IMG/VR virus record: IMGVR_UViG_3300027974_001778
Location: 107,476 to 127,475 of that record
Reading direction: 5' to 3' (one strand)
From: an uncultured virus (IMG/VR IMGVR_UViG_3300027974_001778)
Taxonomy: Duplodnaviria; Heunggongvirae; Uroviricota; Caudoviricetes
DNA length: 20,000 bases
Both the position numbers and the translations under genes were made by a program. Under the pieces are notes generated by a model. It ran no database searches. It had not been told where the DNA came from and saw only the letters and a list, made by a program, of their open reading frames with translations. Positions 1-12,420 of this stretch are shown here, piece by piece (position 1 is the first letter of the stretch; the number at the start of each line of letters is the position of its first letter).

Positions 1-8
1 TTCCATTG

Positions 9-82
9 TTGGAATAGATGGACTCGAACCATCGACATTCACCGTATCAGGATGACGCTCTAACCAACTGAGCTATATTCCA
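9..82 (-). tRNA. tRNA-Ile(GAT)
   Basis: Reverse complement folds as a cloverleaf: TGGAATA/TATTCCA acceptor, TCATC-CT GAT AC-GGTGA anticodon arm, GGTTCGAGTCC T arm. Confidence 0.93.
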
Positions 83-94
83 TTGTTGTTGGTA

Positions 95-102
95 CAAAGA
101 TA
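95..102 (-). promoter_or_regulatory. Bacteroidetes-type -7 promoter element TATCTTTG upstream of tRNA-Ile
   Basis: Matches TAnnTTTG; the same motif recurs upstream of other transcription units in this window. Confidence 0.6.
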
Positions 103-117
103 CTAATTTTATTTTAT

Positions 118-152
118 AAAAAAAATCCCCCTGACTTTTAATCAGAGGGATT
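118..152 (-). terminator. Intrinsic terminator after ORF 176-625
   Basis: AATCCCTCTGA/TCAGGGGGATT hairpin followed by a long T run on the minus strand. Confidence 0.75.
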
Positions 153-175
153 CAATATTAAATTTAAAAAATATA

Positions 176-625
176 CTACTTTAAAAATCTTAATTTGTAT
201 ATTGTTGAATAAATTAATTCTTGAACCGTATCTATTTGGTTTTGAATAAACGATTCTTTAACTCCTTTTCTTACTTTTTCAATCATGTAGTCTAATGATT
301 TAAAATAATTAATTACTTGGTCAACACTTTTATAATCCTCAGTTTTTGCTGAGTCATAATTTTTAACAAGGTCGTACTTACCTTGGTAACTTTCGATAAT
401 ACCGTCCACTAATTTGTCTATACCCTCATAATATCCTTGTAATGCTTTATGTTCTGAATATGATTTGGTTTGTAAATGAAAAATATGAACTTGAGTTTGA
501 GAATGTAATAGTGTTGATACCATATTCTTAAATCCTGAGTTACTTTTAGTTTCAGACTTATTTTCCTGCTCATTCAAATGCATCACTTTGAATAGTTGTT
601 CTTTTGTTAATGTTAATTTATCCAT
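176..625 (-). CDS. Ferritin/Dps-like four-helix-bundle phage protein (DUF5856-like)
   Basis: HIFHLQTKSYSEHKALQGYYEGIDKLVDGIIESYQG resembles the Dps H..H/D..E helix pattern; TATTTAT motif just upstream. Confidence 0.7.
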   Translation of the reverse strand: MDKLTLTKEQLFKVMHLNEQENKSETKSNSGFKNMVSTLLHSQTQVHIFHLQTKSYSEHKALQGYYEGIDKLVDGIIESYQGKYDLVKNYDSAKTEDYKSVDQVINYFKSLDYMIEKVRKGVKESFIQNQIDTVQELIYSTIYKLRFLK

Positions 626-660
626 ACAGATAAATAGTCAACATATTCAAAAAATATTTG

Positions 661-732
661 GGTCAACGGACGGTATCGAACCGTCTTCCCGAGCTCCACA
701 AACTCGTGCTTCACCTTAAAGCTTCAAAGACC
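661..732 (-). tRNA. tRNA-His(GTG), acceptor stem with mismatches
   Basis: CGAGT-TT GTG GA-GCTCG anticodon arm, GACGG TTCGATA CCGTC T arm, G-1:C73 extended stem GGTCTTTG/CGTTGACC. Confidence 0.8.
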
Positions 733-737
733 ATATG

Positions 738-811
738 TTGCGAGAGGCAGATTTGAACTGCCCACCTCAGGGTTATGAATCCTGCGCTCTCACCAAATGA
801 GCTACCTCGCA
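738..811 (-). tRNA. tRNA-Met(CAT), possibly initiator-like
   Basis: TGCGAGG/TCTCGCA acceptor, CAGGA-TT CAT AA-CCCTG anticodon arm. Confidence 0.85.
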
Positions 812-817
812 GTTTAG

Positions 818-889
818 AGGTTCTATTAGGATTCGAACCTAAACTCCAAAATCCGTAGTTTTGTGTGCTATCCGTTACACCATAAAACC
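818..889 (-). tRNA. tRNA-Arg(ACG)
   Basis: GGTTTTA/TAGAACC acceptor, CAAAA-CT ACG GA-TTTTG anticodon arm, GGTTCGAATCC. Confidence 0.92.
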
Positions 890-967
890 TTAGTCACGGT
901 CATTGTCCCATTTTACAACAAGCATCAAAATAACCCATAATAATAATAACCACATATTTTTTTCCAT
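890..967 (-). CDS. Putative 25-aa single-TM micropeptide MEKNMWLLLLWVILMLVVKWDNDRD
   Basis: Hand translation; fills the tRNA-Gln/tRNA-Arg spacer almost exactly; hydrophobic core with charged tail. Confidence 0.45.
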   Translation of the reverse strand: MEKNMWLLLLWVILMLVVKWDNDRD

Positions 968-971
968 TTTG

Positions 972-1042
972 TTATCCGACCTGGATTCGAACCAGAAATG
1001 ACAGTACCAAAAACTGTAGTGTTACCGTTACACCATCGGACA
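972..1042 (-). tRNA. tRNA-Gln(TTG)
   Basis: TGTCCGA/TCGGATA acceptor, ACAGT-TT TTG GT-ACTGT anticodon arm. Confidence 0.93.
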
Positions 1043-1047
1043 ATATG

Positions 1048-1121
1048 TGGACCAGATAGGAATCGAACCTATTACCTTCACATTATGAGTGTGCCGCTCT
1101 AACCGAATGAGCTACAAGTCC
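1048..1121 (-). tRNA. tRNA(CAT), probably Ile2 (lysidine-modified) rather than Met
   Basis: GGACTTG...GCACA-CT CAT AA-TGTGA...CTGGTCCA; second CAT tRNA in the array. The Ile2 assignment is inference. Confidence 0.8.
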
Positions 1122-1124
1122 ATG

Positions 1125-1211
1125 AAGCTAAACATTGCTTTCAGGGTTGAAATGGCTCACAGATAAATCCGAATCACCACCTACTGATTTTACAGTATCT
1201 TAGTTTAACTT
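1125..1211 (-). ncRNA. Candidate structured spacer RNA
   Basis: Closing stem AAGTTAAAC/GTTTAGCTT plus TACTG/CAGTA hairpin, flush between two tRNAs. Confidence 0.35.
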
Positions 1212-1214
1212 TTG

Positions 1215-1296
1215 TGGGAGTAGCTGGACTCGAACCAACGAACTCGAAAGAGGGAAGATTTACAGTCTTCTGCCATTGCCACTAGGCGATACTCCC
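1215..1296 (-). tRNA. tRNA-Tyr(GTA)
   Basis: GGGAGTA/TACTCCC acceptor, GAAGA-CT GTA AA-TCTTC anticodon arm, long variable arm. Confidence 0.95.
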
Positions 1297-1301
1297 AAAA
1301 A

Positions 1302-1430
1302 TCAGGAAAGAGGAAGATGGTTCAGTGGACATCCTCTTTTACGATTGGCATTACTAATGGTAGTTTAAACTCCGACGATGTCTTATTCCAACCACTACCA
1401 GGTATTTACATCATCATTCCCCAATCAACC
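1302..1430 (-). ncRNA. Candidate pseudoknotted ncRNA
   Basis: Stems GATTGG/CCAATC and TGGTAGT/ACTACCA, crossing GATGATGT/ACATCGTC, 3' hairpin AAAGAGGA/TCCTCTTT. Confidence 0.5.
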
Positions 1431-1435
1431 TTTAG

Positions 1436-1508
1436 CACGCACGAAAGGGGTCGAACCTCTGACACATAGTTTTGGAGACTACTGCTCTACCATCTGAGCT
1501 ACGCACGT
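1436..1508 (-). tRNA. tRNA-Trp(CCA)
   Basis: GTAGT-CT CCA AA-ACTAT anticodon arm; ACGTGCG/CGTGCGT acceptor; G73. Confidence 0.92.
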
Positions 1509-1514
1509 GTTTAC

Positions 1515-1760
1515 TTAATTAATAAATTCTTCTGTGTTTATGTTATGTTCGTCTAATATTTCGTATATCTTTCCAAACACTAACTCTAAAGTTTCGTACT
1601 TATCAACATCTTTACCTTCTAAAGACCACTCTAAAGACTTTTTAGTATTATGGGTAATTTCCCATAATGCCATAGCCATATCAAAAGACTTAACCGCTCT
1701 TTTATGAGCAATTACTTCATCTTGGTCATTTAAATCAAATTCTAATATTCCTTTTGCCAT
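1515..1760 (-). CDS. Hypothetical phage protein (81 aa)
   Basis: ATG ORF filling the Cys-Trp tRNA spacer, protein-like composition. Confidence 0.8.
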   Translation of the reverse strand: MAKGILEFDLNDQDEVIAHKRAVKSFDMAMALWEITHNTKKSLEWSLEGKDVDKYETLELVFGKIYEILDEHNINTEEFIN

Positions 1761-1774
1761 AATATATATTTTTG

Positions 1775-1846
1775 AGGTCGATACAGGATTCGAACCTGTG
1801 TAAATAGTTTTGCAGACTACCGCCTAATCCACTCGGCCAATCGACC
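1775..1846 (-). tRNA. tRNA-Cys(GCA)
   Basis: GGTCGAT/ATCGACC acceptor, GTAGT-CT GCA AA-ACTAT anticodon arm, U73. Confidence 0.94.
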
Positions 1847-2032
1847 ATTTAACGTTTCTTTAATTTTATATTTTTTACATCTTTTTTTAGGTATCTCAAC
1901 ATAATATGAACCAAATACAGAAATAAAAAGTCCAACATAGTTTTCTCCTTGTTCACTAACTTCTTGTAAAACGGTTCCTTCATATAAATGAGGAAAAATA
2001 TCCGCGCTATCTTTTTTTACAACTACTTTCAT
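1817..2032 (-). CDS. Hypothetical protein (71 aa); 3' end overlaps tRNA-Cys
   Basis: ATG ORF with A-rich upstream region; its stop TAG lies inside the tRNA. Confidence 0.6.
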   Translation of the reverse strand: MKVVVKKDSADIFPHLYEGTVLQEVSEQGENYVGLFISVFGSYYVEIPKKRCKKYKIKETLNGRLAEWIRR

Positions 2033-2044
2033 TTTAATTTATTT

Positions 2045-2263
2045 TTAATGTGTTCCGTTTGTTAATGAAATCCCATGCCTTACTCCTGTAATGAAATCTT
2101 CAATTTCTTCTTCGGTCATATTGTTATATCTCTTACCGACAGTATGTCCAATCTCATTACCACAATCACTTAAATCTCCTTCGTATATTGTTACATCTGA
2201 TTTTCCTTTCAAAGATACAGAAATCCAAGATAAATCACTACTGTTAAATGTTCTTTTTTCCAT
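2045..2263 (-). CDS. Hypothetical protein (72 aa)
   Basis: ATG ORF tightly packed with its neighbours. Confidence 0.7.
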   Translation of the reverse strand: MEKRTFNSSDLSWISVSLKGKSDVTIYEGDLSDCGNEIGHTVGKRYNNMTEEEIEDFITGVRHGISLTNGTH

Positions 2264-2268
2264 ATTTT

Positions 2269-2892
2269 TTAATTTAATGAATTTGGGTAATACAATAATG
2301 TCGGGTTCTTTTTTTGGATATCAACCTCGGGATATCTTTCCTTAAATTTCATCACATTAAAAGGTTGAGTTATAATATGGAACCCACTTCTTGTTTTAAT
2401 AAAAGTCATTCCTTGTTCTTTTCCCGCCTCTTTCTGTAACTCGTTTATATATTCTCTCATTTTAATTTGACTTGGAGAATGGTTAAATCCATCAATGGAT
2501 ACATTATCAATATCAATAATCCATCTTTTCTCTTGAGTCTTTATCTGTCCCACAACCGAGTCAAATAACCCCTTTTGGTTCTGAACTCCATTCTTAATTC
2601 TCTCAGCCAAACTTGCCAACATATCCAAAGACACATCTCTGTGATTTTGTTTCTGAACATGAATGTAAGCTCTTGCCTTGAACATCTCACATAATTGCAT
2701 CACCTCATCATATCTCCTTTCCAAATGGTCAACTGATTCAATGCAATATGTTTTAATAGTTCTAACCGACTGATGGTTATCTCTTTCTCCTTCAGGTTGG
2801 TCTTTCTTACGTTTGAAAACATACAGCATATAGAAGTCACCCTTCTCCTCAAAGTTCAATAATGGTTTTATTATGTCTATATTGTTTATCAT
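2269..2892 (-). CDS. Phage protein with AEP (primase-polymerase)-like motifs
   Basis: WIIDID and KTRSGFHII resemble AEP motifs I (hhhDhD) and II (S/TxxGhH). Start reassigned to ATG 2892 because the longer ORF start lies in a T-arm. Confidence 0.55.
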   Translation of the reverse strand: MINNIDIIKPLLNFEEKGDFYMLYVFKRKKDQPEGERDNHQSVRTIKTYCIESVDHLERRYDEVMQLCEMFKARAYIHVQKQNHRDVSLDMLASLAERIKNGVQNQKGLFDSVVGQIKTQEKRWIIDIDNVSIDGFNHSPSQIKMREYINELQKEAGKEQGMTFIKTRSGFHIITQPFNVMKFKERYPEVDIQKKNPTLLYYPNSLN

Positions 2893-2906
2893 ATCATTTT
2901 TTTTTG

Positions 2907-3009
2907 TTGTTAAGGTGGGATTCGAACCCACAACGTAGTCTCGTAAAGAGAATCATCACCGTTTCGACTTACCGAGCCCTGTGCTCGTTTACATATCTAC
3001 TACTTAACT
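2907..3009 (-). ncRNA. tRNA-like RNA lacking canonical D and anticodon arms
   Basis: GTTAAG/CTTAAC acceptor-like stem and perfect GTGGG TTCGAAT CCCAC T arm; interior has other hairpins. Confidence 0.55.
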
Positions 3010-3010
3010 T

Positions 3011-3345
3011 CCTACCCCACTTCACCAGCTTAACGGACTGGCTGCCATATGGGAGTGGGGGTTTCCCGTTAATTCGGGACTCCGCGATGTTGCGGGAATC
3101 GAACCCACTCGATGAACTACTTGTGATATGCACCAACCATTTGCTCCAATCCTAGTATTAAGGAGTGTTACCTACAAATCACCATCATTCAACCCTTTAA
3201 CACCAAATTTGACTACTGACTGACTCCTTTCGAACTTTGAGGGTTTGTATCATTCAATATCAGTAGTCCAAGGCTGTAGGAGCTCATCTTTACACTTAGG
3301 CTCTTTGTCTTCTCATGTTGCAACATTTACGACCGTAGCGTCACC
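3011..3345 (-). ncRNA. Candidate large structured ncRNA (~335 nt) with internal T-arm
   Basis: No credible ORF, higher GC, many complementary segments, a predicted pseudoknot, GTGGG TTCGATT CCCGC. Confidence 0.55.
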
Positions 3346-3352
3346 TTGTTTG

Positions 3353-3425
3353 TGGTACGAGGTGGGTTCGAACCACCGACAACTTGTTCTTCAGACAAGC
3401 ACTCTACCAACTGAGTTATCGCACC
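3353..3425 (-). tRNA. tRNA-Phe(GAA)
   Basis: GGTGCGA/TCGTACC acceptor, CTTGT-CT GAA GA-ACAAG anticodon arm. Confidence 0.94.
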
Positions 3426-3430
3426 AAGTT

Positions 3431-3500
3431 TAAAGTTAAAGTCGCCCACACTTGTTCGGGGCGGGACCTTTCGGTCACCTTCGACATCCCCTCAACTTTA
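3431..3500 (-). ncRNA. Candidate 70-nt multi-stem RNA
   Basis: TAAAGTTGAGG/CTTTAACTTTA closing stem, GACC-GAAA-GGTC GNRA hairpin, CGCCC/GGGCG stem. Confidence 0.45.
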
Positions 3501-3713
3501 ATTCACTTCAATATCTTCCAAAGGTACATCTTCTCCCTGAGTATGTTTATAAACTGTATTAAAAAACTCTCCTAACAATCTATAGTCCTCAGGAATCATA
3601 TGACAAAAATCAAATGCAGGAATTGCACCATGAATTTGACCTTGTACTACCTTATCAAACTTATCATCTGGTTTGTACTCAAACACAGTATGTCCTCTAA
3701 AAATATATTTCAT
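3498..3713 (-). CDS. Hypothetical protein (71 aa)
   Basis: ATG ORF, co-oriented with the operon. Confidence 0.7.
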   Translation of the reverse strand: MKYIFRGHTVFEYKPDDKFDKVVQGQIHGAIPAFDFCHMIPEDYRLLGEFFNTVYKHTQGEDVPLEDIEVN

Positions 3714-3714
3714 A

Positions 3715-3814
3715 ACTTCCGATTTTGTCTTGTTTTTACTTCCGAATTTGGACGGGTTTTACTTCCGACTTTGTCACTGCTCACATTTGAGGAAGTTTAC
3801 TGCTCAAATTTGAG
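3715..3814. repeat. 23-bp periodic imperfect repeats
   Basis: ACTTCCGA..TTG at 3715, 3738 and 3761; ACTGCTCA.ATTTGAG at 3776 and 3799. Confidence 0.7.
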
Positions 3815-3821
3815 ATTTATG

Positions 3822-3894
3822 TAGTCCCTGTAGGAATCGAACCTACGACAACTTGCATGTAAGGCAAGTGCTCTTCCAACTGAGCTAAGAGACT
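3822..3894 (-). tRNA. tRNA-Val(TAC)
   Basis: AGTCTCT/AGGGACT acceptor, CTTGC-CT TAC AT-GCAAG anticodon arm. Confidence 0.93.
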
Positions 3895-3899
3895 AAATG

Positions 3900-3973
3900 T
3901 ATCGCGTACGGGGCTCGAACCCGTAATCTTCATCGTGAAAGGATGACGACTTAACCAATTTGTCCAACGCGAC
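3900..3973 (-). tRNA. tRNA-Glu(TTC)
   Basis: GTCGCGT/ACGCGAT acceptor, TCATC-CT TTC AC-GATGA anticodon arm. Confidence 0.94.
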
Positions 3974-3983
3974 ATTTGTTTCA

Positions 3984-4015
3984 CAAAGATACAACCAATA
4001 TTTCAAAGAGCCAAA
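3984..4015 (-). promoter_or_regulatory. Bacteroidetes-type promoter TTTG-N20-TATCTTTG directly upstream of tRNA-Glu
   Basis: -33 element at 4012-4015, -7 element at 3984-3991. Confidence 0.6.
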
Positions 4016-4018
4016 AAC

Positions 4019-4053
4019 AAAAAACCCTGAACTTCATTTCTGTAGTTCAGGGT
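4019..4053 (-). terminator. Attenuator terminator 1
   Basis: 10-bp stem ACCCTGAACT/AGTTCAGGGT plus T tract; 5' arm is complementary to leader segment 4105-4114. Confidence 0.85.
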
Positions 4054-4075
4054 ATATAAAAAATTTGGTTTATTT

Positions 4076-4186
4076 TTAGTTTAAAAAATTATTCAAAATT
4101 ATATCCGAACTACATGACTGCATACGCTCATACCAACAAGTTTCTTGTTGTTGACTAAAGACTGTATGTTTTATTGTAGTTCTCAT
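4076..4186 (-). CDS. Putative attenuation leader peptide 1 (36 aa, MRTTIKHTVFSQQQETCWYERMQSCSSDIILNNFLN)
   Basis: ATG 18 nt after a consensus promoter; codons match the downstream tRNA set; contains the antiterminator strand. Confidence 0.75.
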   Translation of the reverse strand: MRTTIKHTVFSQQQETCWYERMQSCSSDIILNNFLN

Positions 4187-4204
4187 TGTTTCTAATATAT
4201 AGTT

Positions 4205-4235
4205 CAAAGATATGAAAAAATCTTTGAGTGTCAAA
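4205..4235 (-). promoter_or_regulatory. Bacteroidetes-type promoter TTTG-N19-TATCTTTG for leader 1
   Basis: -33 element at 4232-4235, -7 element at 4205-4212. Confidence 0.75.
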
Positions 4236-4260
4236 TATTTTTCCAAGTATTTATAAAAAG

Positions 4261-4680
4261 ATGAAGACATTAAGAGAAATTATTAAAGAAAATTTATTAG
4301 TTGAGAAAAGAATAACTCAAGTTAACTCATCTTTAGAAGTTTTATTTGTATTTGATGTGAATAGAACCAGTCATGCGTTCGATAGAGATACTAGAGATGA
4401 TATTGAAGGATATAACATAAGAGCGATTGAGAATGATGAAATCAGAGAAATTATCAGTAAGGTAAAAAAAGAAATCTCCGAAAAAATAGTAACAAGAGAA
4501 ATTGTACCTGAAGAAGATTTTGTCGTAAAATCTTTAAAGTGGGAATTGGCAATGGCGATAACTCCTGTTCATATGGGAGGAACCTATTGGCAACTAATCA
4601 TCAAAACAGTATTTAGAGAATCCAATCATAACCCTTTTAGAGTTGGTAAAAATCAATTGGTTATTTATTCTGACATCTAA
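4261..4680 (+). CDS. Hypothetical phage protein (139 aa)
   Basis: ATG 4261 follows TATTTAT (4248-4254); N-terminus LREIIKENLLVE. Confidence 0.8.
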   Translation: MKTLREIIKENLLVEKRITQVNSSLEVLFVFDVNRTSHAFDRDTRDDIEGYNIRAIENDEIREIISKVKKEISEKIVTREIVPEEDFVVKSLKWELAMAITPVHMGGTYWQLIIKTVFRESNHNPFRVGKNQLVIYSDI

Positions 4681-4681
4681 T

Positions 4682-4770
4682 AAAAAAGGGTAACACTAGT
4701 ATCTGAATCGTTCCCGTGTTACCCAGTTTGTAATTGAGCTTGTGTATCTAAATCGTGCTCCTCAATCACA
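4682..4770 (-). ncRNA. Candidate two-hairpin sRNA with repeated loop motif ACGATT(T/C)AGATAC
   Basis: Own TATCTTTG promoter (4774-4781); hairpins TGTGATTGAG/CTCAATTACA and GGGTAACAC/GTGTTACCC followed by T6. Confidence 0.65.
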
Positions 4771-4833
4771 ATACAAAGATACAAAAATATTTTGGTTTAC
4801 AAAATCTATTGTATTTTTTTTTTATAAATATTG

Positions 4834-4914
4834 TACCCCAAGTCGGACTCGAACCGACACGACTTACGTCACAAGTTCCTAAAACTTGAGTGTCTACCAT
4901 TCCACCATCGGGGT
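4834..4914 (-). tRNA. tRNA-Leu(TAG)
   Basis: CAAGT-TT TAG GA-ACTTG anticodon arm, long variable arm, ACCCCGA/TTGGGGT acceptor. Confidence 0.94.
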
Positions 4915-4920
4915 ATACAT

Positions 4921-5010
4921 TATCATCGCTCCAGCCACATCGAGGAACACGCCGCCCCCGCGTTGTTTAAGTGTATGAATTGCGCCGTATCTCACTGAGT
5001 TACGATGATA
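4921..5010 (-). ncRNA. Candidate 90-nt stem-closed RNA
   Basis: Perfect 8-bp terminal stem TATCATCG/CGATGATA, GC-rich interior, flush between tRNAs. Confidence 0.5.
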
Positions 5011-5014
5011 ATTG

Positions 5015-5088
5015 TGATTCGGAAAGGATTCGAACCTTTGACCCCAAACTTAGAAGGTTTGTGCTCTATCCAGCTGAGCTACCGAACC
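5015..5088 (-). tRNA. tRNA-Arg(TCT)
   Basis: GGTTCGG/CCGAATC acceptor, CAAAC-CT TCT AA-GTTTG anticodon arm. Confidence 0.94.
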
Positions 5089-5094
5089 AAATTT

Positions 5095-5190
5095 CCCCAC
5101 CTGAAATCCCAGTGAGTAGATATTCGCAGTTTTTCGTATTGAAAAACCCAACGCGTCTTACCGCTTAAAAAGTCAAACATACTCGGTGGC
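5095..5190 (-). ncRNA. Candidate structured RNA
   Basis: CCACC/GGTGG, GAGTA/TACTC and GTTTTTC/GAAAAAC nested stems. Confidence 0.45.
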
Positions 5191-5296
5191 GTTGTTACGA
5201 CCATTCTCCGAGACCCCCTCTTAAGGCCGTGGTAGGAAACAACCATAACATCTTTAAAGAACGTTACCAAACTTGATGAGTACTTCTAACTCATTG

Positions 5297-5378
5297 TATC
5301 AGAGGTGGGACTCGAACCCACACGAGCAAAGCTCAACAGATTTTAAGTCTGTCTTGTATACCATTCCAACACTCTGAC
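5297..5378 (-). tRNA. tRNA-Leu(TAA)
   Basis: ACAGA-CT TAA AA-TCTGT anticodon arm, long variable arm. Confidence 0.94.
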
Positions 5379-5387
5379 ATTGTTTTA

Positions 5388-5395
5388 CAAAGATA
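5388..5395 (-). promoter_or_regulatory. TATCTTTG -7 element upstream of the tRNA-Leu/Arg/Leu unit
   Basis: Matches TAnnTTTG, 9 nt upstream of the tRNA. Confidence 0.6.
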
Positions 5396-5418
5396 GTGAA
5401 TATCTTTAATAAAGTCAT

Positions 5419-5451
5419 AAAAAAACCCCGAACTTTTTTAGTCGGGGTTTT
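5419..5451 (-). terminator. Intrinsic terminator after ORF 5469-6188
   Basis: AAAACCCCGA/TCGGGGTTTT hairpin plus T tract. Confidence 0.8.
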
Positions 5452-5468
5452 AATTATAATAATTATTA

Positions 5469-6188
5469 TTAATCATTAAAACTTTCCTCGTAATAAGTAT
5501 CGCTTGCGTTATCTTCTATATTTTCTGTATGAACCAATTCGATTGTCATATCATGAAAATTGAATATAAATTGTCCATCAGAACCTTCATTAATTTCCCA
5601 ACCACTATAGTTATCACTAAGCTCTCTGTAACACCAATCTTCAATTGCAGCTGGAACTCCATCACCTGTTTCATTAAAACTACTTTCAAGATATCCCGAA
5701 TCACCAGAACCATTATATGTTACTATTAAAATCCCATCGTCAGGAATTGTAAGGTCTTCTAATACTCCACTTTCTTCCCATTCTTCAAATAGCTCCTTTC
5801 CTTGTTCATCCTCCCAAGTAACTGAACTACCTTCTCCTCTAGTATAAAAAGACCACCAACGAGTAAAACTAATTTTTTTAGAATCTACGTCAATGTCGTA
5901 TTCAAGTCTTTGATAATTCGTATCATCATTATCAGGTTCTCTAATTAAATTATTATCATCGCAATATTTCATAATTTTTTGAAGTATTGGAATCAATCCT
6001 GATGGAATATCTGCATTGTAGTTATTAGTGAAATGGGTTACATAATCCCAATCAACATTGTCATAATCAAATTCCTCTTGATTATCCATATCAATTTCAA
6101 TGTTGCCGTCTTGCATTCCCATTGAACCTAAGTAATTGGATATTCTTCTTAAATATTGTTTTTCTTCTGGTGTTAAAATTCCTTTCAT
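5469..6188 (-). CDS. Acidic protein with C-terminal DUF6878-like domain
   Basis: YNGSGDSG...SGWEINEGSDGQF motif, recalled as DUF6878-like; sits next to a DUF6915-like gene. Confidence 0.6.
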   Translation of the reverse strand: MKGILTPEEKQYLRRISNYLGSMGMQDGNIEIDMDNQEEFDYDNVDWDYVTHFTNNYNADIPSGLIPILQKIMKYCDDNNLIREPDNDDTNYQRLEYDIDVDSKKISFTRWWSFYTRGEGSSVTWEDEQGKELFEEWEESGVLEDLTIPDDGILIVTYNGSGDSGYLESSFNETGDGVPAAIEDWCYRELSDNYSGWEINEGSDGQFIFNFHDMTIELVHTENIEDNASDTYYEESFND

Positions 6189-6199
6189 ACTTATAAATA

Positions 6200-6553
6200 T
6201 CAGTCGTTGAACTCTAGTTTAATTGTTTTTAACATCCATTGAGGACGTTGATTTGTTGATACGTTATTTATCCATTCTTTGGCAGATGGAATGTAGTTAT
6301 TACAATCTTCTTTAACATGTTGTTCTCCAACATATCTGGTGTAGACTGTAGTCCCGTCGCTATTCTTAAATTCGGCCCCAAATCTTTTTTCCATTTCAAA
6401 AATACCCTCACTATGATGTCTAAACATTCTATGAAGTGAATCTCCAAACCATCCTTTAGTCTCATCTAACCATTCATGTAGATGAATATAGTCTTCAGGT
6501 TTTCCACCAAATTTTTTGGCGGATGATTTTGCATGTAAGTTAGGGTGTGCCAT
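6200..6553 (-). CDS. DUF6915-like His-rich protein
   Basis: HAKSSAKKFGG..EDY..HEW.D..K...HR..RHH.EG...EQHVKED pattern. Confidence 0.7.
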   Translation of the reverse strand: MAHPNLHAKSSAKKFGGKPEDYIHLHEWLDETKGWFGDSLHRMFRHHSEGIFEMEKRFGAEFKNSDGTTVYTRYVGEQHVKEDCNNYIPSAKEWINNVSTNQRPQWMLKTIKLEFND

Positions 6554-7118
6554 TTTTCCAAGAGTCTTTATTGTAGTTAAAATATACGAAATCTTCTTCT
6601 AAATAAGAATAAACATAATCAGCCAAATCTTGGTCATAATATTCTTTATAATCATATCCTGATGAATAACCGTTGTTTAAAATGTTATCATACACAATAT
6701 CAAAAAGTTCATGTGAATCATCCATAAAAAATGGAAGTTTTAATATGTCTGAGTATAAATTCTCAACTCTAATTAATAAATCAGGAGTTTTGGTAATCCT
6801 TTTTTTTAAAAAAAATTCATAATCCAAAGTTTTGCCAGGAAATTTTATTTCTTCATGCAATTTTTGTCTAATCCAACTATTAAAGTCATTAGGAATTAAA
6901 TTAGAGTGTATACAAAAAAGATGATATATTGAAATCATTCTGATATATGGATTTCTTGTATTTAAAACAAAAAAATATTCTTCTTTACCTTTTGGAATTT
7001 GCAAACCATGTAGTCCAATAACGTCAAATTCAAAGTATGTTTGAATAGGCATGCATGACCTTGCTGCCGTTCTAATAGGTGTTGCCCACAATACTTTATA
7101 TTTGTCAGAATAATTCAT
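6540..7118 (-). CDS. Sulfotransferase family 2-like protein
   Basis: RNPYIRMISIY (3'-PB motif), IRVENL and YKEYYD...EDFVYFNY; the 5'-PSB motif (PIRTAARS) is divergent. Confidence 0.7.
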   Translation of the reverse strand: MNYSDKYKVLWATPIRTAARSCMPIQTYFEFDVIGLHGLQIPKGKEEYFFVLNTRNPYIRMISIYHLFCIHSNLIPNDFNSWIRQKLHEEIKFPGKTLDYEFFLKKRITKTPDLLIRVENLYSDILKLPFFMDDSHELFDIVYDNILNNGYSSGYDYKEYYDQDLADYVYSYLEEDFVYFNYNKDSWKNGTP

Positions 7119-7351
7119 TATAAAATCTTTTCTTGTCTTCTTCTTGCCATTTCAGCGTCTTTGTACCATCTAATCCAAGTTAAAGACACATCAATTGGTG
7201 CTAACACCCAAGCCATAACCATAACCATAATAGTATCTAATTCAGGAGACCCACCTGTTGGGTCATCACTATACCTTTTACTAAGGTTTTTAAATAACTG
7301 ATAGAAACAATATATTACACATACAAGGTAATATCCAATAAACATACTCAT
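7118..7351 (-). CDS. Small two-TM membrane protein
   Basis: Two hydrophobic segments; start moved to ATG 7351, downstream of tRNA-Thr. Confidence 0.7.
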   Translation of the reverse strand: MSMFIGYYLVCVIYCFYQLFKNLSKRYSDDPTGGSPELDTIMVMVMAWVLAPIDVSLTWIRWYKDAEMARRRQEKIL

Positions 7352-7366
7352 AAATAAAAATTTTTG

Positions 7367-7439
7367 AGCCTCCTGTCGGACTCGAACCAACGACCACTTG
7401 TTTACAAAACAAGAGCTCTACCAACTGAGCTAAGGAGGC
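7367..7439 (-). tRNA. tRNA-Thr(TGT)
   Basis: GCCTCCT/AGGAGGC acceptor, CTTGT-TT TGT AA-ACAAG anticodon arm. Confidence 0.95.
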
Positions 7440-7442
7440 TTA

Positions 7443-7517
7443 TGGAGCAGATGAGAGGAATCGAACCTCCGTCTCCTACTTGGAAGGAAGGAGTAATGAC
7501 CATTATACGACATCTGC
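7443..7517 (-). tRNA. tRNA-Gly(TCC) with encoded CCA
   Basis: GCAGATG/CATCTGC-T-CCA; CCTTC-CT TCC AA-GTAGG anticodon arm. Confidence 0.93.
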
Positions 7518-7573
7518 GTGGAGTGCAGTGGGAGGTACCTTCCCTGTGGTTACTACACATTTTATCCACTTTG

Positions 7574-7646
7574 CGGTCCCGACGGGATTCGAACCCGTAT
7601 CTCGCACCGTGACAGGGTGGAATTGTAACCATTCAACCACGGAACC
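7574..7646 (-). tRNA. tRNA-Asp(GTC)
   Basis: GGTTCCG/CGGGACC-G acceptor, CACC-CT GTC AC-GGTG anticodon arm. Confidence 0.93.
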
Positions 7647-7674
7647 GTGTATGGGGAGTTTCACCCCAAACTTT

Positions 7675-8163
7675 TTACTCAACAAAGATATGATTATATT
7701 CCAATATTCTTCGTTTTAATTTATTAACATATTGTGGGTCCTCGGCATAAACTTTACCGAGTAATGCAAAATATTGTTTTTTTGTCATATCATTACGTGA
7801 TTTTAACATGTGGTCTTGCCACAATGAGTAATCATACACGCTATACCCCCAATCTTCGTATTTTGAGTAACCACTTTGGGTTTCCCCAATCTTTGCGGAT
7901 TCTCTTTTACTTGGAACTTTCATTCCAAAAAGATTATTAGCTGATTTGAACAACTTTGATGTAAACTCTCCTGATTCTAATATAGCTTGTGCAAACACAA
8001 TATCAGGAAATTTTATACCATACTTAATTATCTGCTCATACAAACTTTCTTTTGAGATACTCTCTTGAGTATTTGATTCAATCTGTACTTGCTTCTCTTG
8101 TGCTTTGGTTGCCATTGTTCCTAACAATAACATCCCAGTCAATAAGAATGTTTTTAACTTCAT
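7675..8163 (-). CDS. Secreted GH73 glucosaminidase/muramidase (FlgJ-like peptidoglycan hydrolase)
   Basis: Signal peptide; AQAILESG, NNLFGMK and YAEDPQY motifs. Confidence 0.88.
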   Translation of the reverse strand: MKLKTFLLTGMLLLGTMATKAQEKQVQIESNTQESISKESLYEQIIKYGIKFPDIVFAQAILESGEFTSKLFKSANNLFGMKVPSKRESAKIGETQSGYSKYEDWGYSVYDYSLWQDHMLKSRNDMTKKQYFALLGKVYAEDPQYVNKLKRRILEYNHIFVE

Positions 8164-8243
8164 TTCTTTCTTTTTGTCTGTTTATGCTTCAGGATTGCTC
8201 CATCCACGATACTACAACATTGGAATTTTTCCACCTACCGCAG

Positions 8244-8315
8244 AGGCCCCTGTAGGATTTGAACCTACGACCAGTTGATTAACAGTCAACTGCTCTACCA
8301 CTGAGCTAAAGGGCC
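8244..8315 (-). tRNA. tRNA-Asn(GTT)
   Basis: GGCCCTT/AGGGGCC acceptor, GTTGA-CT GTT AA-TCAAC anticodon arm. Confidence 0.94.
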
Positions 8316-8355
8316 TTATAATAATAAATAAAATTTCCAATAAAGGAAACTTTTG

Positions 8356-8429
8356 TCGGGATGGCTGGATTCGAACCAACGGCCTCCACGTCCCAAACGT
8401 GGCGCGATACCTGACTACGCTACATCCCG
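8356..8429 (-). tRNA. tRNA-Pro(TGG)
   Basis: CGGGATG/CATCCCG-A acceptor, CCACG-TT TGG GA-CGTGG anticodon arm. Confidence 0.95.
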
Positions 8430-8434
8430 TAAAT

Positions 8435-8465
8435 AAAAAAACCCTGAAGGATAAGTTCAGGGTTT
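8435..8465 (-). terminator. Attenuator terminator 2
   Basis: AAACCCTGAA/TTCAGGGTTT stem plus T tract ending 5 nt before tRNA-Pro; CTGAACTTA is complementary to leader segment 8504-8512. Confidence 0.85.
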
Positions 8466-8486
8466 AAATAATTGGCTATAATATTG

Positions 8487-8585
8487 TTACCAACCACTCG
8501 CTTCTGAACTTACGCATATAGTGCCCCCATCTCCATTAGGAGTTGTCGGCGTGTCTAAATTTGTATTTGTGTTCATAGTTTTCAT
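8487..8585 (-). CDS. Putative attenuation leader peptide 2 (32 aa, MKTMNTNTNLDTPTTPNGDGGTICVSSEASGW)
   Basis: Hand translation (below the ORF-track cutoff); 17 of codons 5-22 are N/T/D/P/G, matching the downstream tRNAs; contains the antiterminator strand. Confidence 0.8.
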   Translation of the reverse strand: MKTMNTNTNLDTPTTPNGDGGTICVSSEASGW

Positions 8586-8640
8586 AGTACAATATTACAA
8601 TAAATATATTCAAAATCAAATAAATCCCTATTTTAGTTTT

Positions 8641-9360
8641 TTAAGGTAATGTGTTACTACCTTTCAGGTAAAAGTCACCTACAACTTTTGGTCTTAATTC
8701 TGTACCTGAGTACGTACTATAAACTCTGTATTCCCCAACAGGAATACGAGTTCCCGTGTAATTTAAAACATAATCAGATAATGTAGAATTAGTATTGAAA
8801 GGAGTTCTATATATCATATTGGTATGCGCACTAGACATTCTTGATTGTCTCCAATTTGGGTTAGGTGTTGCATTCACAGGAATTAATACCATAATCCACA
8901 CAAATTGATTATTAACTAAAGGACCATTAATTTTAACCGTTCCAAAATTATACACACCTGCCGAAGTTTGTGTAATATTTGATTGAATGACTGTAGGTAA
9001 TGTTCCATTATACCAATACGGCATATCAATATAATTTAACAAATCAGTATAATTTGTTGATTTGATTGGTGACCCAGTAAAAAAACCATAAAATGGAGTG
9101 TTTGTCGGGGTTTGTGTACTACGAGGTCTTGTCTTTAAATAACTCACAATCATATTGAGTTTTGACTGAGGCTCAACAAAAATATAAACCTTTGGTCCAA
9201 CTGATGAAACAGTCGGAGATGTTGACATTGTTCTTAAGTCTTCTCCTTGAGTTGATTCAATTGAAGTTTGTTTAACTGGGTCATACACGTCGTCTTTTGT
9301 ACAAGATACAAATAATACCGATGTTGCGAAAATTGCAAGAAATAATTGTTTTAGTTTCAT
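8641..9360 (-). CDS. Predicted lipoprotein
   Basis: MKLKQLFLAIFATSVLFVSC lipobox; TATCTTTG promoter at 9376-9383. Confidence 0.8.
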   Translation of the reverse strand: MKLKQLFLAIFATSVLFVSCTKDDVYDPVKQTSIESTQGEDLRTMSTSPTVSSVGPKVYIFVEPQSKLNMIVSYLKTRPRSTQTPTNTPFYGFFTGSPIKSTNYTDLLNYIDMPYWYNGTLPTVIQSNITQTSAGVYNFGTVKINGPLVNNQFVWIMVLIPVNATPNPNWRQSRMSSAHTNMIYRTPFNTNSTLSDYVLNYTGTRIPVGEYRVYSTYSGTELRPKVVGDFYLKGSNTLP

Positions 9361-9429
9361 AGTTGTCTTTTTTTACAAAGATAATAAAATAATTTGATTT
9401 TGAAAATTATTTACAGATATTTATTCTTG

Positions 9430-9678: not shown

Positions 9679-12420
9679 ATGAGAGAAATTAAATCTTTTG
9701 ATATTTTTGATACTTTAATATCAAGAACTGTTGAAAATCCGATTGATATTTTTGACATTGTTGAAAAACAATTCCCGTATAATAATTTTAAAAATTTACG
9801 AATTCAGTCACAAAATCAATCAAACCACACAATGGATTCAATTTATAATGAATTTAAAAATATCACAAATGAATCTGATGAAACCATAAATAAGTTAAGA
9901 GAATTTGAACTAATTACGGAAATGGAAAATACCATACCAATTTTTAGTAATATTTCAAAAATAAAAGACGGTGATATATTTGTTTCTGATATGTACCTGT
10001 CTTCAAATGAAATACGTAAATTACTTGATTATCATAATATAAATAAAAATACGGAGTTATTTGTTTCATCTGGAGGTAAATCAGATGGTACAATGTGGGA
10101 GGCTCTTACACAAACATATAAAATTAATTCTCATTATGGTGACAATTATCATTCTGATATAATGATGGCCTCAAGATATGGAATAAAAGGGGTTTACACA
10201 GAAGCCTATAAATTCACAGTTTTAGAATCATATCTTATTCGAAATAATGAATTTGAGTTATGTCAACAAATAAGAAAATTTAGACTTGCAAATCCATATG
10301 ATGAAAATACTATAGAATACAAAATATACGAACAACAAATTTCTTATAATATACCAATACTATTATTTATTTGTAATAAACTAGATGAAATTTTAATAAA
10401 TGAAAATCGTAATACTGTATTATTTCATTCAAGAGATGGGTGCTTATTAATAAAATTATTTTCTTACTTATACCCACAATATAAATCAATATATTTACAT
10501 TCTAGCAGAATTATTAATAATGATTATACCGATGACTATATTTCATATTTAAAAGAAAATTATGATAAAGATAGTTGTGTTTTATTTGATTTACATGGTT
10601 CATTAAACAGTGGGAAAAAACTTTTTACATCACTTTTTGAACATTTGCCTAGAATATTTATTTTTGACCTTTCTTATATTGAAAATTATATTAGTGAAAT
10701 AACATATATCACAAATTACTCAAGTAAAATAGAGGAGTTTAATCATGATTATAAAGGAACATTAGTTCAATTTATAAAGAATGAAGATATACGTACCCCA
10801 ACTGAGCATCCTCTAAAATATATTGATATAATTCATAGTATTTTTGATTCTTTTATAAAATATTTTGATGTAAATTTGAAAAAAAATCCAATATTGAACA
10901 ATAATGATTTTTTTAAAAAATATTATGTAGAAACTGTATGTAAATCTGAAACTATTTTAAAAAACCAATTTGAATTTTTGAATCTTACCAAATTAGCAAA
11001 CAAATATAACTCAGACAAAGGAAACCTTTTTTTGTGTGCTCACCATTACTCTATAAAGTACGAACAAATATTCAATGATATATTAAATTTTAAATTAGGA
11101 AGAAAAGATTTTTCTACATTTGATTTATTAGAAATTGGATTAAATATATCAACCACAGAAGAATCAATCCCATCATTAATGATATGGAATGATTATTTTA
11201 ATAAAAATATAAATATTACAGGATTTGATATAGATAATCGTTTTTCAAAATTAAATATAGACCAAAATATAGATATTAAAATTGGTGACCAATCAAGTGA
11301 AAAGGACTTATTACAATTAAAAAATAAAAACTATGACATGATAATTGATGATGGTTATCATGCGTCAAAACATCAACAAATTACATTTAAAACATTGTGG
11401 CAAAACGTAAAACCAGGAGGATATTTTATTATTGAGGATTTACATTACCAACCAGAGCCAGAAACGTGCATAAAAACAAAAGAGTTATTTGAAAATTGGA
11501 AGAGCGATAATTGGATAGAAACTGAGTATATTAACTCAGATGAAATACAAATCATCAAAAAGGATATTGAAAGTATTGAATTTTATGACTCAAGCTCAAA
11601 AAATTGGGGGGATTCCGTAAAAAACGCGTTTGTGTATATTAAAAAAAAAGAAAGAATGAATATTATAAATGAAAACACTATGAATGAAATTATACAATAT
11701 GAATTTCCAGTACCATCACAGGCGGAAGAAAAATATTATTACACAGATAAATCAGCGATTTTGAATATCAGAAACATTTTAAGTAAAAATGGTAAGTATA
11801 ATTATTGTGAAATTGGTTCTTATTTAGGAGGTTCATTAGTCCCCTTTTTAAGAGACCCTCAATGTGAGTATATACTATCAGTTGATGATAGAGGTAATAT
11901 ACAACCAGATGAAAGGGGTATTAGTTATGATTACAGGCATATTTCAACCCAAACTATGTTAGATACATTATCAAAGCATAGTTTAGATTTAACAAAATTA
12001 GAAACATTTGATGGTTCTGTACATGAATTAAATAAAAACATCAATAAATTTGATTTAGTTTTTATAGATGGTGAACATACCGATTATGCATGTTTTAGAG
12101 ACTTTATGTATTCTCAAAAATACCTAAAAGAAAATTCAGTTGTTATGTTTCATGATAGTACTTTAGTATATAAATCATTAAAAATAATACAAGAATATCT
12201 GACATGTAATAATATAGTTCATAAATTTATTAAAATTCCAAATTCATCAGTAACGTTTATTTTTTTTGGTGATTATATTTCTTTGTGTACTGAATTTGAA
12301 TCAGAAGATGTTGAAATTTTTTATAATAAGTCAGAAGAAGAGGTTCTTTACCATGTTATACAAAATAGAGTAGAGGGAAGTTTTATTATTAAAAATAAAA
12401 CATACACAATAGGTGGGTAA
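9679..12420 (+). CDS. Multidomain HAD-like hydrolase plus two class I SAM methyltransferase domains
   Basis: HAD: SFDIFDTL, VSDMYL, HYGDNYHSD. MTase 1: SDKG..LLEIG..DMIIDDGYH..KPGGYFIIEDL. Methyltransf_24-like: EIGSYLGGS..FIDGEH..FHDS. Confidence 0.8.
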   Translation: MREIKSFDIFDTLISRTVENPIDIFDIVEKQFPYNNFKNLRIQSQNQSNHTMDSIYNEFKNITNESDETINKLREFELITEMENTIPIFSNISKIKDGDIFVSDMYLSSNEIRKLLDYHNINKNTELFVSSGGKSDGTMWEALTQTYKINSHYGDNYHSDIMMASRYGIKGVYTEAYKFTVLESYLIRNNEFELCQQIRKFRLANPYDENTIEYKIYEQQISYNIPILLFICNKLDEILINENRNTVLFHSRDGCLLIKLFSYLYPQYKSIYLHSSRIINNDYTDDYISYLKENYDKDSCVLFDLHGSLNSGKKLFTSLFEHLPRIFIFDLSYIENYISEITYITNYSSKIEEFNHDYKGTLVQFIKNEDIRTPTEHPLKYIDIIHSIFDSFIKYFDVNLKKNPILNNNDFFKKYYVETVCKSETILKNQFEFLNLTKLANKYNSDKGNLFLCAHHYSIKYEQIFNDILNFKLGRKDFSTFDLLEIGLNISTTEESIPSLMIWNDYFNKNINITGFDIDNRFSKLNIDQNIDIKIGDQSSEKDLLQLKNKNYDMIIDDGYHASKHQQITFKTLWQNVKPGGYFIIEDLHYQPEPETCIKTKELFENWKSDNWIETEYINSDEIQIIKKDIESIEFYDSSSKNWGDSVKNAFVYIKKKERMNIINENTMNEIIQYEFPVPSQAEEKYYYTDKSAILNIRNILSKNGKYNYCEIGSYLGGSLVPFLRDPQCEYILSVDDRGNIQPDERGISYDYRHISTQTMLDTLSKHSLDLTKLETFDGSVHELNKNINKFDLVFIDGEHTDYACFRDFMYSQKYLKENSVVMFHDSTLVYKSLKIIQEYLTCNNIVHKFIKIPNSSVTFIFFGDYISLCTEFESEDVEIFYNKSEEEVLYHVIQNRVEGSFIIKNKTYTIGG

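Follow-up and report, generated by a model that had tools for sequence, protein, structure and literature searches.

Transcription attenuation by leader peptides is known from enterobacteria, in which thrL (Thr, Ile), ilvL and ivbL (Ile, Leu, Val), trpL, hisL, leuL, pheL, and the pheST leader precede biosynthesis or synthetase genes. These attenuators combine a short codon-enriched leader, an intrinsic terminator, and an exclusive antiterminator, and one leader can serve several amino acids. Two units with the same components, A and B, were found on the minus strand of the window analyzed here, which is the whole stretch of 20,000 nucleotides (nt) that forms the terminal 20 kilobases (kb; positions 107,476 to 127,475) of IMG/VR record IMGVR_UViG_3300027974_001778. 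The source is an uncultured lake phage, and its contig is 127,475 base pairs long, with a CheckV completeness of 41% and a G+C content of 32.7%. In each unit, a short open reading frame (ORF) is followed by an intrinsic terminator and then by transfer RNA (tRNA) genes, and both units are probably ribosome-mediated (leader-peptide) transcription attenuators located before phage tRNA genes.

These units differ from enterobacterial attenuators in several respects. Their targets are tRNA genes instead of biosynthesis or synthetase genes, and the output would feed back directly on the sensed molecule because the regulated genes are tRNA genes. In contrast to the single-codon runs of the enterobacterial leaders, a leader of this type calls for as many as 13 different amino acids, each at one or a few codons. 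Furthermore, the leader segment of the antiterminator (region 2) lies within the ORF, 12-53 nt before the stop codon, and unit B has a promoter-like box after its terminator. T-box riboswitches also sense tRNA status and place a terminator/antiterminator switch before translation-related genes; however, the T-box is untranslated and works by direct binding of one uncharged tRNA, whereas the ORF described here is conserved at the amino-acid level. An Rfam scan of window positions 1-9000 returned the tRNAs and weak unrelated matches, with nothing at 8430-8600 or 4010-4200, and neither the Rfam leader families (Thr, His, Trp, and Leu) nor the T-box gave a match at E ≤ 1.

The reasons why phages carry tRNA genes have long been argued, and the proposals range from codon compensation to host tRNA decay and evasion of tRNA-cleaving defenses (PMC10264068, in the portions available). 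The present case resembles phage-tRNA counter-defense, such as that of T5-type phages against retron or PARIS effectors, in which phage tRNAs are hypothesized to replace a depleted host pool (PMC10264068). The available portions of these reports concern the tRNAs themselves and describe no leader-peptide control of tRNA transcription. Likewise, no published account of leader-peptide attenuation of tRNA genes was found in the full-text literature, with subscription-only journals lying outside the scope of the search.

A sequence-only reading had pointed to two units of short ORF plus terminator with a shared core before tRNA genes, and both were recovered (Table 1). The distance from leader stop to hairpin was 21-22 nt in both units. 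Terminators A and B shared the core CCCTGAAC..TTCAGGG, and the full hairpin pattern was found only at these two sites across the 127-kb contig. The word ACCCTGAA, common to both hairpins, occurred six times in the window versus 0.66 expected, and a count of six was reached in none of 200 shuffles. A promoter-like TTTG-N19-TATCTTTG motif at 4235..4205 makes the inner ATG at 4186 the most likely start of leader B, which was previously read as a 64-codon ORF and would thus comprise 36 codons. All 20 tRNA genes of the window were on the minus strand and were each confirmed by Rfam, and a 21st, tRNA-Ser(GCT), lay just beyond the window edge. As previously counted, 16 of the 20 (5 + 11) were located downstream of terminators A and B.

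The composition of both leaders corresponded to the tRNAs behind them. In leader A, 18 of the 21 residues at codons 2-22 were P, N, D, G, or T, which are the residues carried by its five tRNAs (binomial probability 3.4e-7, with these residues making up 31% of the long ORFs of the contig), and none of the contig's 328 other ORFs with an ATG start and a length of 25-45 codons reached its whole-ORF matching fraction. Leader B lacked none of the 10 amino-acid types carried by its 11 tRNAs, with even the rare C, W, H, and M represented; coverage this complete had a simulated probability of P = 0.003 for 35 residues, and 1 of the 328 contig ORFs equalled it. At the codon level, the majority of sensor codons fit the anticodons (e.g., CGT in leader B fits tRNA-Arg(ACG)), and codon 2 of leader B (AGA) is part of an RNA pairing word.

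Table 1. Features of the two putative attenuators and of the surrounding tRNA genes (window coordinates).
Feature	Position	Strand	Details or basis
Candidate promoter of leader A: TTTG, 19 nt, TAATATTG	8590..8620	(-)	Ends 4 nt before ATG; 7/8 of Bacteroidota -7 box
Leader A ORF, 32 codons + stop, MKTMNTNTNLDTPTTPNGDGGTICVSSEASGW (begins MKTMNTNTNLDTPTTPNGDGGT)	8585..8487	(-)	Codons 2-22 form the putative sensor part, rich in Thr/Asn/Asp/Pro/Gly
Region 2 of putative attenuator A (AAGTTCAG)	8504..8511	(-)	Complementary to CTGAACTT of terminator 5' arm and loop
Inner hairpin holding leader A stop codon	8466..8499	(-)	Folds; juxtaposes regions 2 and 3 and is stacked below the 2:3 helix
Terminator A: AAACCCTGAA / loop cttatcc / TTCAGGGTTT + T-run	8434..8465 including T-run (hairpin 8465..8439)	(-)	-12.3 kcal/mol
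tRNA-Pro(TGG) and tRNA-Asn(GTT)	8243..8429	(-)	Immediately 3' of terminator A, no space for a promoter
Glucosaminidase (endolysin-like) gene between tRNA-Asn and tRNA-Asp	7675..8163	(-)	PF01832, E 3.3e-19; endolysin PHROGs
TATCTTTG box	7683..7690	(-)	36 nt upstream of tRNA-Asp
tRNA-Asp(GTC), tRNA-Gly(TCC), and tRNA-Thr(TGT)	7366..7646	(-)	tRNA calls, Rfam
Terminator (hairpin + T-run) ending the unit begun at leader A, after ORF 6188..5469	5419..5450	(-)	Sequence
Leaderless unit: TATCTTTG box (5395..5388), tRNA-Leu(TAA), 207-nt spacer, tRNA-Arg(TCT), tRNA-Leu(TAG)	4833..5395	(-)
Promoter-like TTTG-N19-TATCTTTG upstream of leader B	4205..4235	(-)	Box 18 nt before leader B start
Leader B ORF, 36 codons + stop from the inner ATG at 4186, MRTTIKHTVFSQQQETCWYERMQSCSSDIILNNFLN (begins MRTTIKHTVFSQQQETCWYERMQSC)	4186..4076	(-)
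Region 1 of putative attenuator B (GAACTACA, codons 2-4)	4175..4182	(-)	Same 8-mer as terminator 5' arm
Region 2 of putative attenuator B (TGTAGTTCGG)	4105..4114	(-)	Complementary to terminator 5' arm CCTGAACTACA
Terminator B: ACCCTGAACTACA / gaaa / TGAAGTTCAGGGT + T-run	4019..4053 including T-run (hairpin 4053..4024)	(-)	-17.1 kcal/mol
Promoter-like TTTG-N20-TATCTTTG between terminator B and tRNA-Glu	3984..4015	(-)	Ends 10 nt before tRNA-Glu
tRNA-Glu, Val, Phe, Cys, Trp, Tyr, Met, Gln, Arg(ACG), Met, His and six interspersed ORFs	660..3973	(-)
Leaderless unit: terminator (153..123), TATCTTTG box (102..95), tRNA-Ile(GAT)	8..153	(-)

The relationship between leader and tRNA set was retained in related loci of IMG/VR. 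A first scan for the hairpin yielded 38 loci, 33 of which contained tRNAs; a second, wider pattern yielded 64 loci with 84 instances of hairpin plus T-run, of which 38 had a same-strand tRNA within 300 nt. As read from the listing, a leader ORF of 27-36 codons preceded 35 of these 38 tRNA-associated hairpins (in L059, from the inner ATG of a 43-codon ORF), and an ORF of 68 codons preceded the remaining three (L071, L093, and L104). The leaders formed at least eight families, and their composition followed the tRNAs of each family. Leader MKNMNLHIAVIKPMAVCQWYPR contained 13 of the 13 types of its tRNAs (Pro, Pro, Lys, Cys, Trp, Leu, Val, Tyr, Ala, Gln, Met, His, Arg, and Ile), and leader MKNTNKNMTRVAKATTKGG contained 8 of 8 (Thr, Lys, Lys, Asn, Arg, Val, Ala, Met, Gly, and Gly). 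Other examples were MKNFIKHINISVQPQFSNCW, with tRNAs for Gln, Phe, His, Asn, Arg, Ser, Pro, Ile, Ile, Lys, Val, Cys, and Trp, and MTTLNTLNRLALAPTNDGTGN, with tRNAs for Pro, Asn, Gly, Asp, and Thr. A diverged B-type leader (MRTTMVHISSFKQQEICSWYRYVENCSS, locus L103) had more Ser, Ile, and Lys, and the tRNAs behind it were those for Val, Glu, Phe, His, Ser, Ile, Lys, Cys, Trp, and Tyr. When leaders were permuted against the tRNA sets of these hairpin-family loci, 24 of 40,320 arrangements scored as well as the true pairing (1 of 120 for a five-family subset), and recall in the leader frame equalled or exceeded that of each of the five alternative frames in 12 of 12 units. Within this hairpin family, the correlation across genomes that the sequence-only reading had proposed as a check was observed. 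The hairpin unit resembles a modular cassette in which the leader is re-coded along with changes in the tRNA block.

Three further observations were made in these loci. The leaders mostly start with MKN or MKT. The CCCTGAAC..GTTCAGGG hairpin with T-runs on both sides (L041-L104), which serves at least eight leader families, is also a two-way terminator. In L103 (8666-9106), leader MRTTMVHISSFKQQEICSWYRYVENCSSENMVK is followed by a hairpin in which CCCCGAAC replaces CCCTGAAC, and then by a TATCTTTG box 49 nt before tRNA-Val.

Comparison of five DNA variants of leader A with the window revealed different constraints on the two parts of the ORF. Six of codons 2-22 were variable, and five of these six changed only synonymously; the sole sensor replacement was Gly/Ala at codon 20. 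A tRNA-Ala was located at the operon end in 11 of 13 loci with Ala at this codon and in none of the three contigs with Gly. On the other hand, six of the seven variable codons among codons 23-32 altered the amino acid, yet the GTTCAG word was retained. This pattern of synonymous-only versus replacement changes suggests that the front of leader A is constrained as protein-coding sequence and its tail as RNA.

The RNA word in the tail is complementary to the terminator. The duplex of leader and terminator arm reached -13.7 kcal/mol in unit A (12 of 500 shuffles as good) and -15.1 kcal/mol in unit B (0 of 500). In 11 of 12 representative units, the best duplex of the leader with the terminator 5' arm and loop fell at codons 23-27, was built on a GTTCAG-like word, and ranged from -8.5 to -16.9 kcal/mol. 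The bases flanking this word changed jointly with the loop bases beside CTGAAC (AA/TT, GT/AC, AG/CT, TA/TA, and TG/CA). In alignment A1, the antiterminator helix was 75.4% paired, and its covariation score was 0.179 versus 0.114 ± 0.017, with 0 of 500 shuffles as high; slid registers all scored ≤0.059, and two pairs had four double changes each. In the untranslated fold, region 1 of leader B pairs with region 2; across the families, no consistently aligned region 1 was found, and a clear one was present in leader B only.

From the observed anatomy, statistics, and comparative covariation, we infer translation of the leaders, ribosome stalling, and control of read-through as follows. The leader would be transcribed and translated, and its first ~22-25 codons would demand amino acids, and mostly codons, that are served by the downstream phage tRNAs. 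A ribosome that runs through would reach the final part of the ORF and pass over or melt the GTTCAG word there (region 2); the CCCTGAAC..TTCAGGG terminator would then form and transcription would halt before the tRNAs. When a decodable tRNA is short, the ribosome would stall at any of the sensor codons, and region 2 would be free to pair with the newly made terminator 5' arm. This 2:3 pairing would block the terminator, and the polymerase would continue into the tRNA genes. More tRNA is thus probably made when sensor codons are read slowly. New tRNAs would relieve the stall, and tRNA supply would therefore be under negative feedback, with each leader taking several inputs. The features expected of an attenuator were found in both units, i.e., a short codon-matched ORF upstream (in unit B by coverage), an intrinsic terminator, and an antiterminator pairing whose kinetic control is assumed. 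The interval from terminator to tRNA was free of a promoter in unit A (5 nt), and it contained a promoter motif in unit B. The part of the sequence-only reading that concerned feedback, in which translated leaders sense decoding and gate a terminator, is borne out by the tracking of composition, the conservation of the sensor at the amino-acid level, and the covarying antiterminator.

If this mechanism is correct, the phage has its own gauge of decoding capacity and supplies tRNA when it is needed, and the question of why phages carry tRNAs becomes testable in terms of which condition opens the gate. Leader-peptide attenuation would also be extended to a new target class whose product feeds back directly on the signal, and "checklist" leaders of up to 13 amino-acid types would represent compact natural multi-input sensors.

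Several observations weigh against attenuation, in the leaders, in the folds, and in the promoter-like boxes. The matching-residue fraction of leader B was 0.57, no higher than the 0.60 and 0.64 of other frames; the evidence for leader B is therefore coverage and not enrichment, and the earlier claim that each leader matches its own tRNAs holds as enrichment for A and as presence of all types for B. Some sensor residues were unmatched (K, M, and L in leader A; four T, I, K, and two S in leader B), and the sensor codons ACT, CCT, GGC, and GTC require a U34 that reads U or C. The leader families are not fully independent because one hairpin scaffold is common to all. Two loci (L021 and L040) had an Ala sensor codon but no tRNA-Ala within range, and four others (L041, L058, L084, and L089) had a leader rich in K, R, N, H, and F, yet only Gln, Pro, and Met tRNAs were located within 4 kb. 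Single-unit duplex tests were weak in some units, in which shuffles were as good in 168 of 500 (A2), 63 of 500 (A3), and 44 of 500 (H) cases, and only 2 of the 11 pairs in the antiterminator helix covaried.

Equilibrium folds point in the same direction. When stalls were simulated on the full RNA, the terminator was preferred at every position in unit B and at all stall positions except codons 10-14 in unit A, and the antiterminator of unit B was no stabler than its terminator (-15.1 versus -17.1 kcal/mol). The equilibrium stall simulation was consequently dropped as proof of a switch, as a clean switch was not obtained. Because equilibrium folds favor the terminator, the model needs a kinetic argument in which 2:3 pairing forms before region 4 exists, and the same need holds for the E. 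coli trp attenuator. RNA data were obtained from eight lake-water metatranscriptome runs that hold parts of the stretch, four of which were compared, all as contigs that give no ends, strand, or levels; stretches not covered by these contigs carry no information. One contig of 217 nt (X3 record 18), with one difference, spans 3963-4179, running from leader B across the terminator and the box into the first 11 nt of tRNA-Glu. It is compatible with read-through RNA; DNA carry-over is possible, and the support is weak.

The promoter-like boxes bear on how much of the tRNA supply passes the gate. The Bacteroidota -7 consensus is given as TAnnTTTG (PMC7641319, in the portion available), which occurred 53 times in the window versus 31 expected, and the box TATCTTTG fits it. 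Exact copies were located 9-12 nt upstream of tRNA-Leu(TAA), tRNA-Ile, and tRNA-Glu, and another 15 nt upstream of ORF 9360. The boxes after terminator B and before tRNA-Asp suggest that some tRNAs may bypass the gate. A box between terminator and first tRNA recurred in L103 and in families E and I; it was absent in families A, C, J, D, H, H2, and G, and the box before tRNA-Asp was absent at the equivalent site in the three A-type relatives checked. That the two leaders stand before 16 tRNAs is correct, but the proposal that all 16 are made solely via the two terminators appears overstated if, as the motif suggests, the boxes function as promoters. Gating of Pro and Asn in unit A would be direct because terminator A abuts tRNA-Pro, and unit A is thus a candidate clean gate for at least these two tRNAs. 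In unit B, the attenuator probably provides an on-demand addition to a basal promoter and is not the only gate, because a promoter-like box follows the terminator.

The remaining tRNAs of the window fit this division. The Leu/Arg(TCT)/Leu and Ile units, previously described as having a promoter and no leader, indeed had a TATCTTTG box 9 and 12 nt upstream, respectively, and the terminator at 5450..5419 also precedes the former. Their tRNAs serve the dominant Leu, Arg, and Ile codons of the phage: TTA accounts for 61% of its Leu codons and AGA for 75% of its Arg codons, and the Ile codons read are ATT/ATC. The leaderless units would therefore fit a constant supply of dominant-codon tRNAs with an on-demand supply of the rest. 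A separate idea, that the Leu and Arg codons of the E and I leaders mirror a contiguous Leu-Arg-Leu block, was dropped; the block is 1.1-1.8 kb away and has its own box.

The anatomy supports feedback on decoding capacity and does not say what depletes the tRNAs. In a far-reaching reading, the leaders would be a multi-input tRNA-surveillance counter-defense that detects any host tRNA loss (e.g., by anticodon nucleases) within one translation round and switches on replacements, with dominant-codon tRNAs constitutive and a modular cassette re-coded with the tRNA block. This combination as a whole is considered unlikely. The purpose given in the sequence-only reading, in which the circuit evolved specifically as surveillance against tRNA-cleaving defenses (PrrC, RloC, PARIS AriB, and retron or VapC-type effectors), is quite unlikely. 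In that case, cleavage of a host tRNA would stall the leader ribosome and switch on nuclease-insensitive phage replacements, and the anatomy suggests that the sensor would react to cleavage just as it would to a shortage of any other origin. Phage tRNAs have also been reported to rescue infection from tRNA-targeting defenses (PMC10264068, PMC11555353, and PMC12409363, in the portions available). However, nothing in the window points to nucleases in particular. The leaders together demand ~16 amino acids instead of the few usual nuclease targets, the contig has no tRNA-Lys, and no defense or counter-defense gene was identified beside the tRNA array. The families RNA_ligase, RNA_lig_T4_1, and RtcB had no match in the contig, which is uninformative given that the contig is 41% complete and that the T4 Rnl1 family matched no control genome.

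A different explanation dispenses with sensing: the leaders would be small or chance ORFs, the hairpins ordinary terminators or insulators of upstream transcription, and the tRNAs would be made from their own promoters. The boxes discussed above and the full-length folds that favor the terminator agree with it, as does the fact that the hairpin is elsewhere an ordinary, often two-way, terminator (46 of the 84 instances had no tRNA within 300 nt). Nevertheless, it leaves unexplained why leader composition tracks the tRNA sets, why the sensor changes only synonymously while the tail keeps its RNA word, why this word covaries with the terminator loop bases, and why only 5 nt separate the T-run of unit A from tRNA-Pro, and it is judged distinctly improbable. 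It is very improbable that the leaders are amino-acid starvation sensors that signal uncharged tRNA when the host is poor in nutrients and tune the infection program accordingly; classical trp and his attenuators do respond to charging levels, and the final gene of unit B belongs to phrog_858 (E 2.1e-23), a Dps-like "starvation-inducible regulator" family, but the identity of the regulated tRNAs mirrors the sensor, which is the logic of supply control and not of starvation signaling, and starvation fits poorly because extra tRNA cannot cure a lack of amino acids.

Apart from the putative attenuators, the tRNA island contained several other genes. The glucosaminidase gene in unit A (7675-8163, minus strand) encodes an N-terminal hydrophobic segment, and A-type relatives have a gap of 600-1280 nt at the same site. 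Behind the unit B tRNAs, no clear terminator was found before 153..123; the last gene of this unit, just before that terminator, is the phrog_858 gene (DUF5856; 176-625, minus strand), annotated as a Dps-like "starvation-inducible transcriptional regulator". The sole plus-strand ORF in 1-9400 (4228-4680, 150 amino acids) had no family match, and its 5' end overlaps the leader B promoter region. A minus-strand TTTG-N18-TATCTTTG site (4803..4774) would read antisense through this ORF. A plus-strand ORF of 913 amino acids with two methyltransferase domains (PF13578 and PF13847) adjoins the tRNA island at 9679-12420. In a search of GenBank phages, no near-identical record was found, and the only likeness was that of a 54-nt segment of tRNA-Asn (~8255-8308) to T4-like phages.

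Two further stretches of the island stood out. Between tRNA-Phe and ORF 2931..2269, ~420 nt (2932-3351, minus strand) lacked a convincing ORF, and G+C content was 43.5% across 2881-3360 versus 32.7% in the contig. This stretch contained two tRNA-like T-arm sequences, with no tRNA or transfer-messenger RNA (tmRNA) call at default thresholds and no Rfam match, and a contig from an RNA library matched 2957-3738 without difference. At this place, a relative (L009) has a tRNA-Lys(TTT) without homology to the stretch. An interrupted tRNA-Lys at 2900-3045 was rejected, since ARAGORN with introns gave only a dubious call at relaxed thresholds and the segment was not homologous to the tRNA-Lys of the relative. 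The second stretch is the spacer between tRNA-Leu(TAA) and tRNA-Arg(TCT) (5089-5295, minus strand), which had no Rfam match and folded no better than shuffles (z -0.78). It was matched by contigs of depth 72 and 533 from two metatranscriptome runs of one study, which cover 5089-5277 with six differences and have different flanking sequence. These contigs may represent a stable small RNA of a relative.

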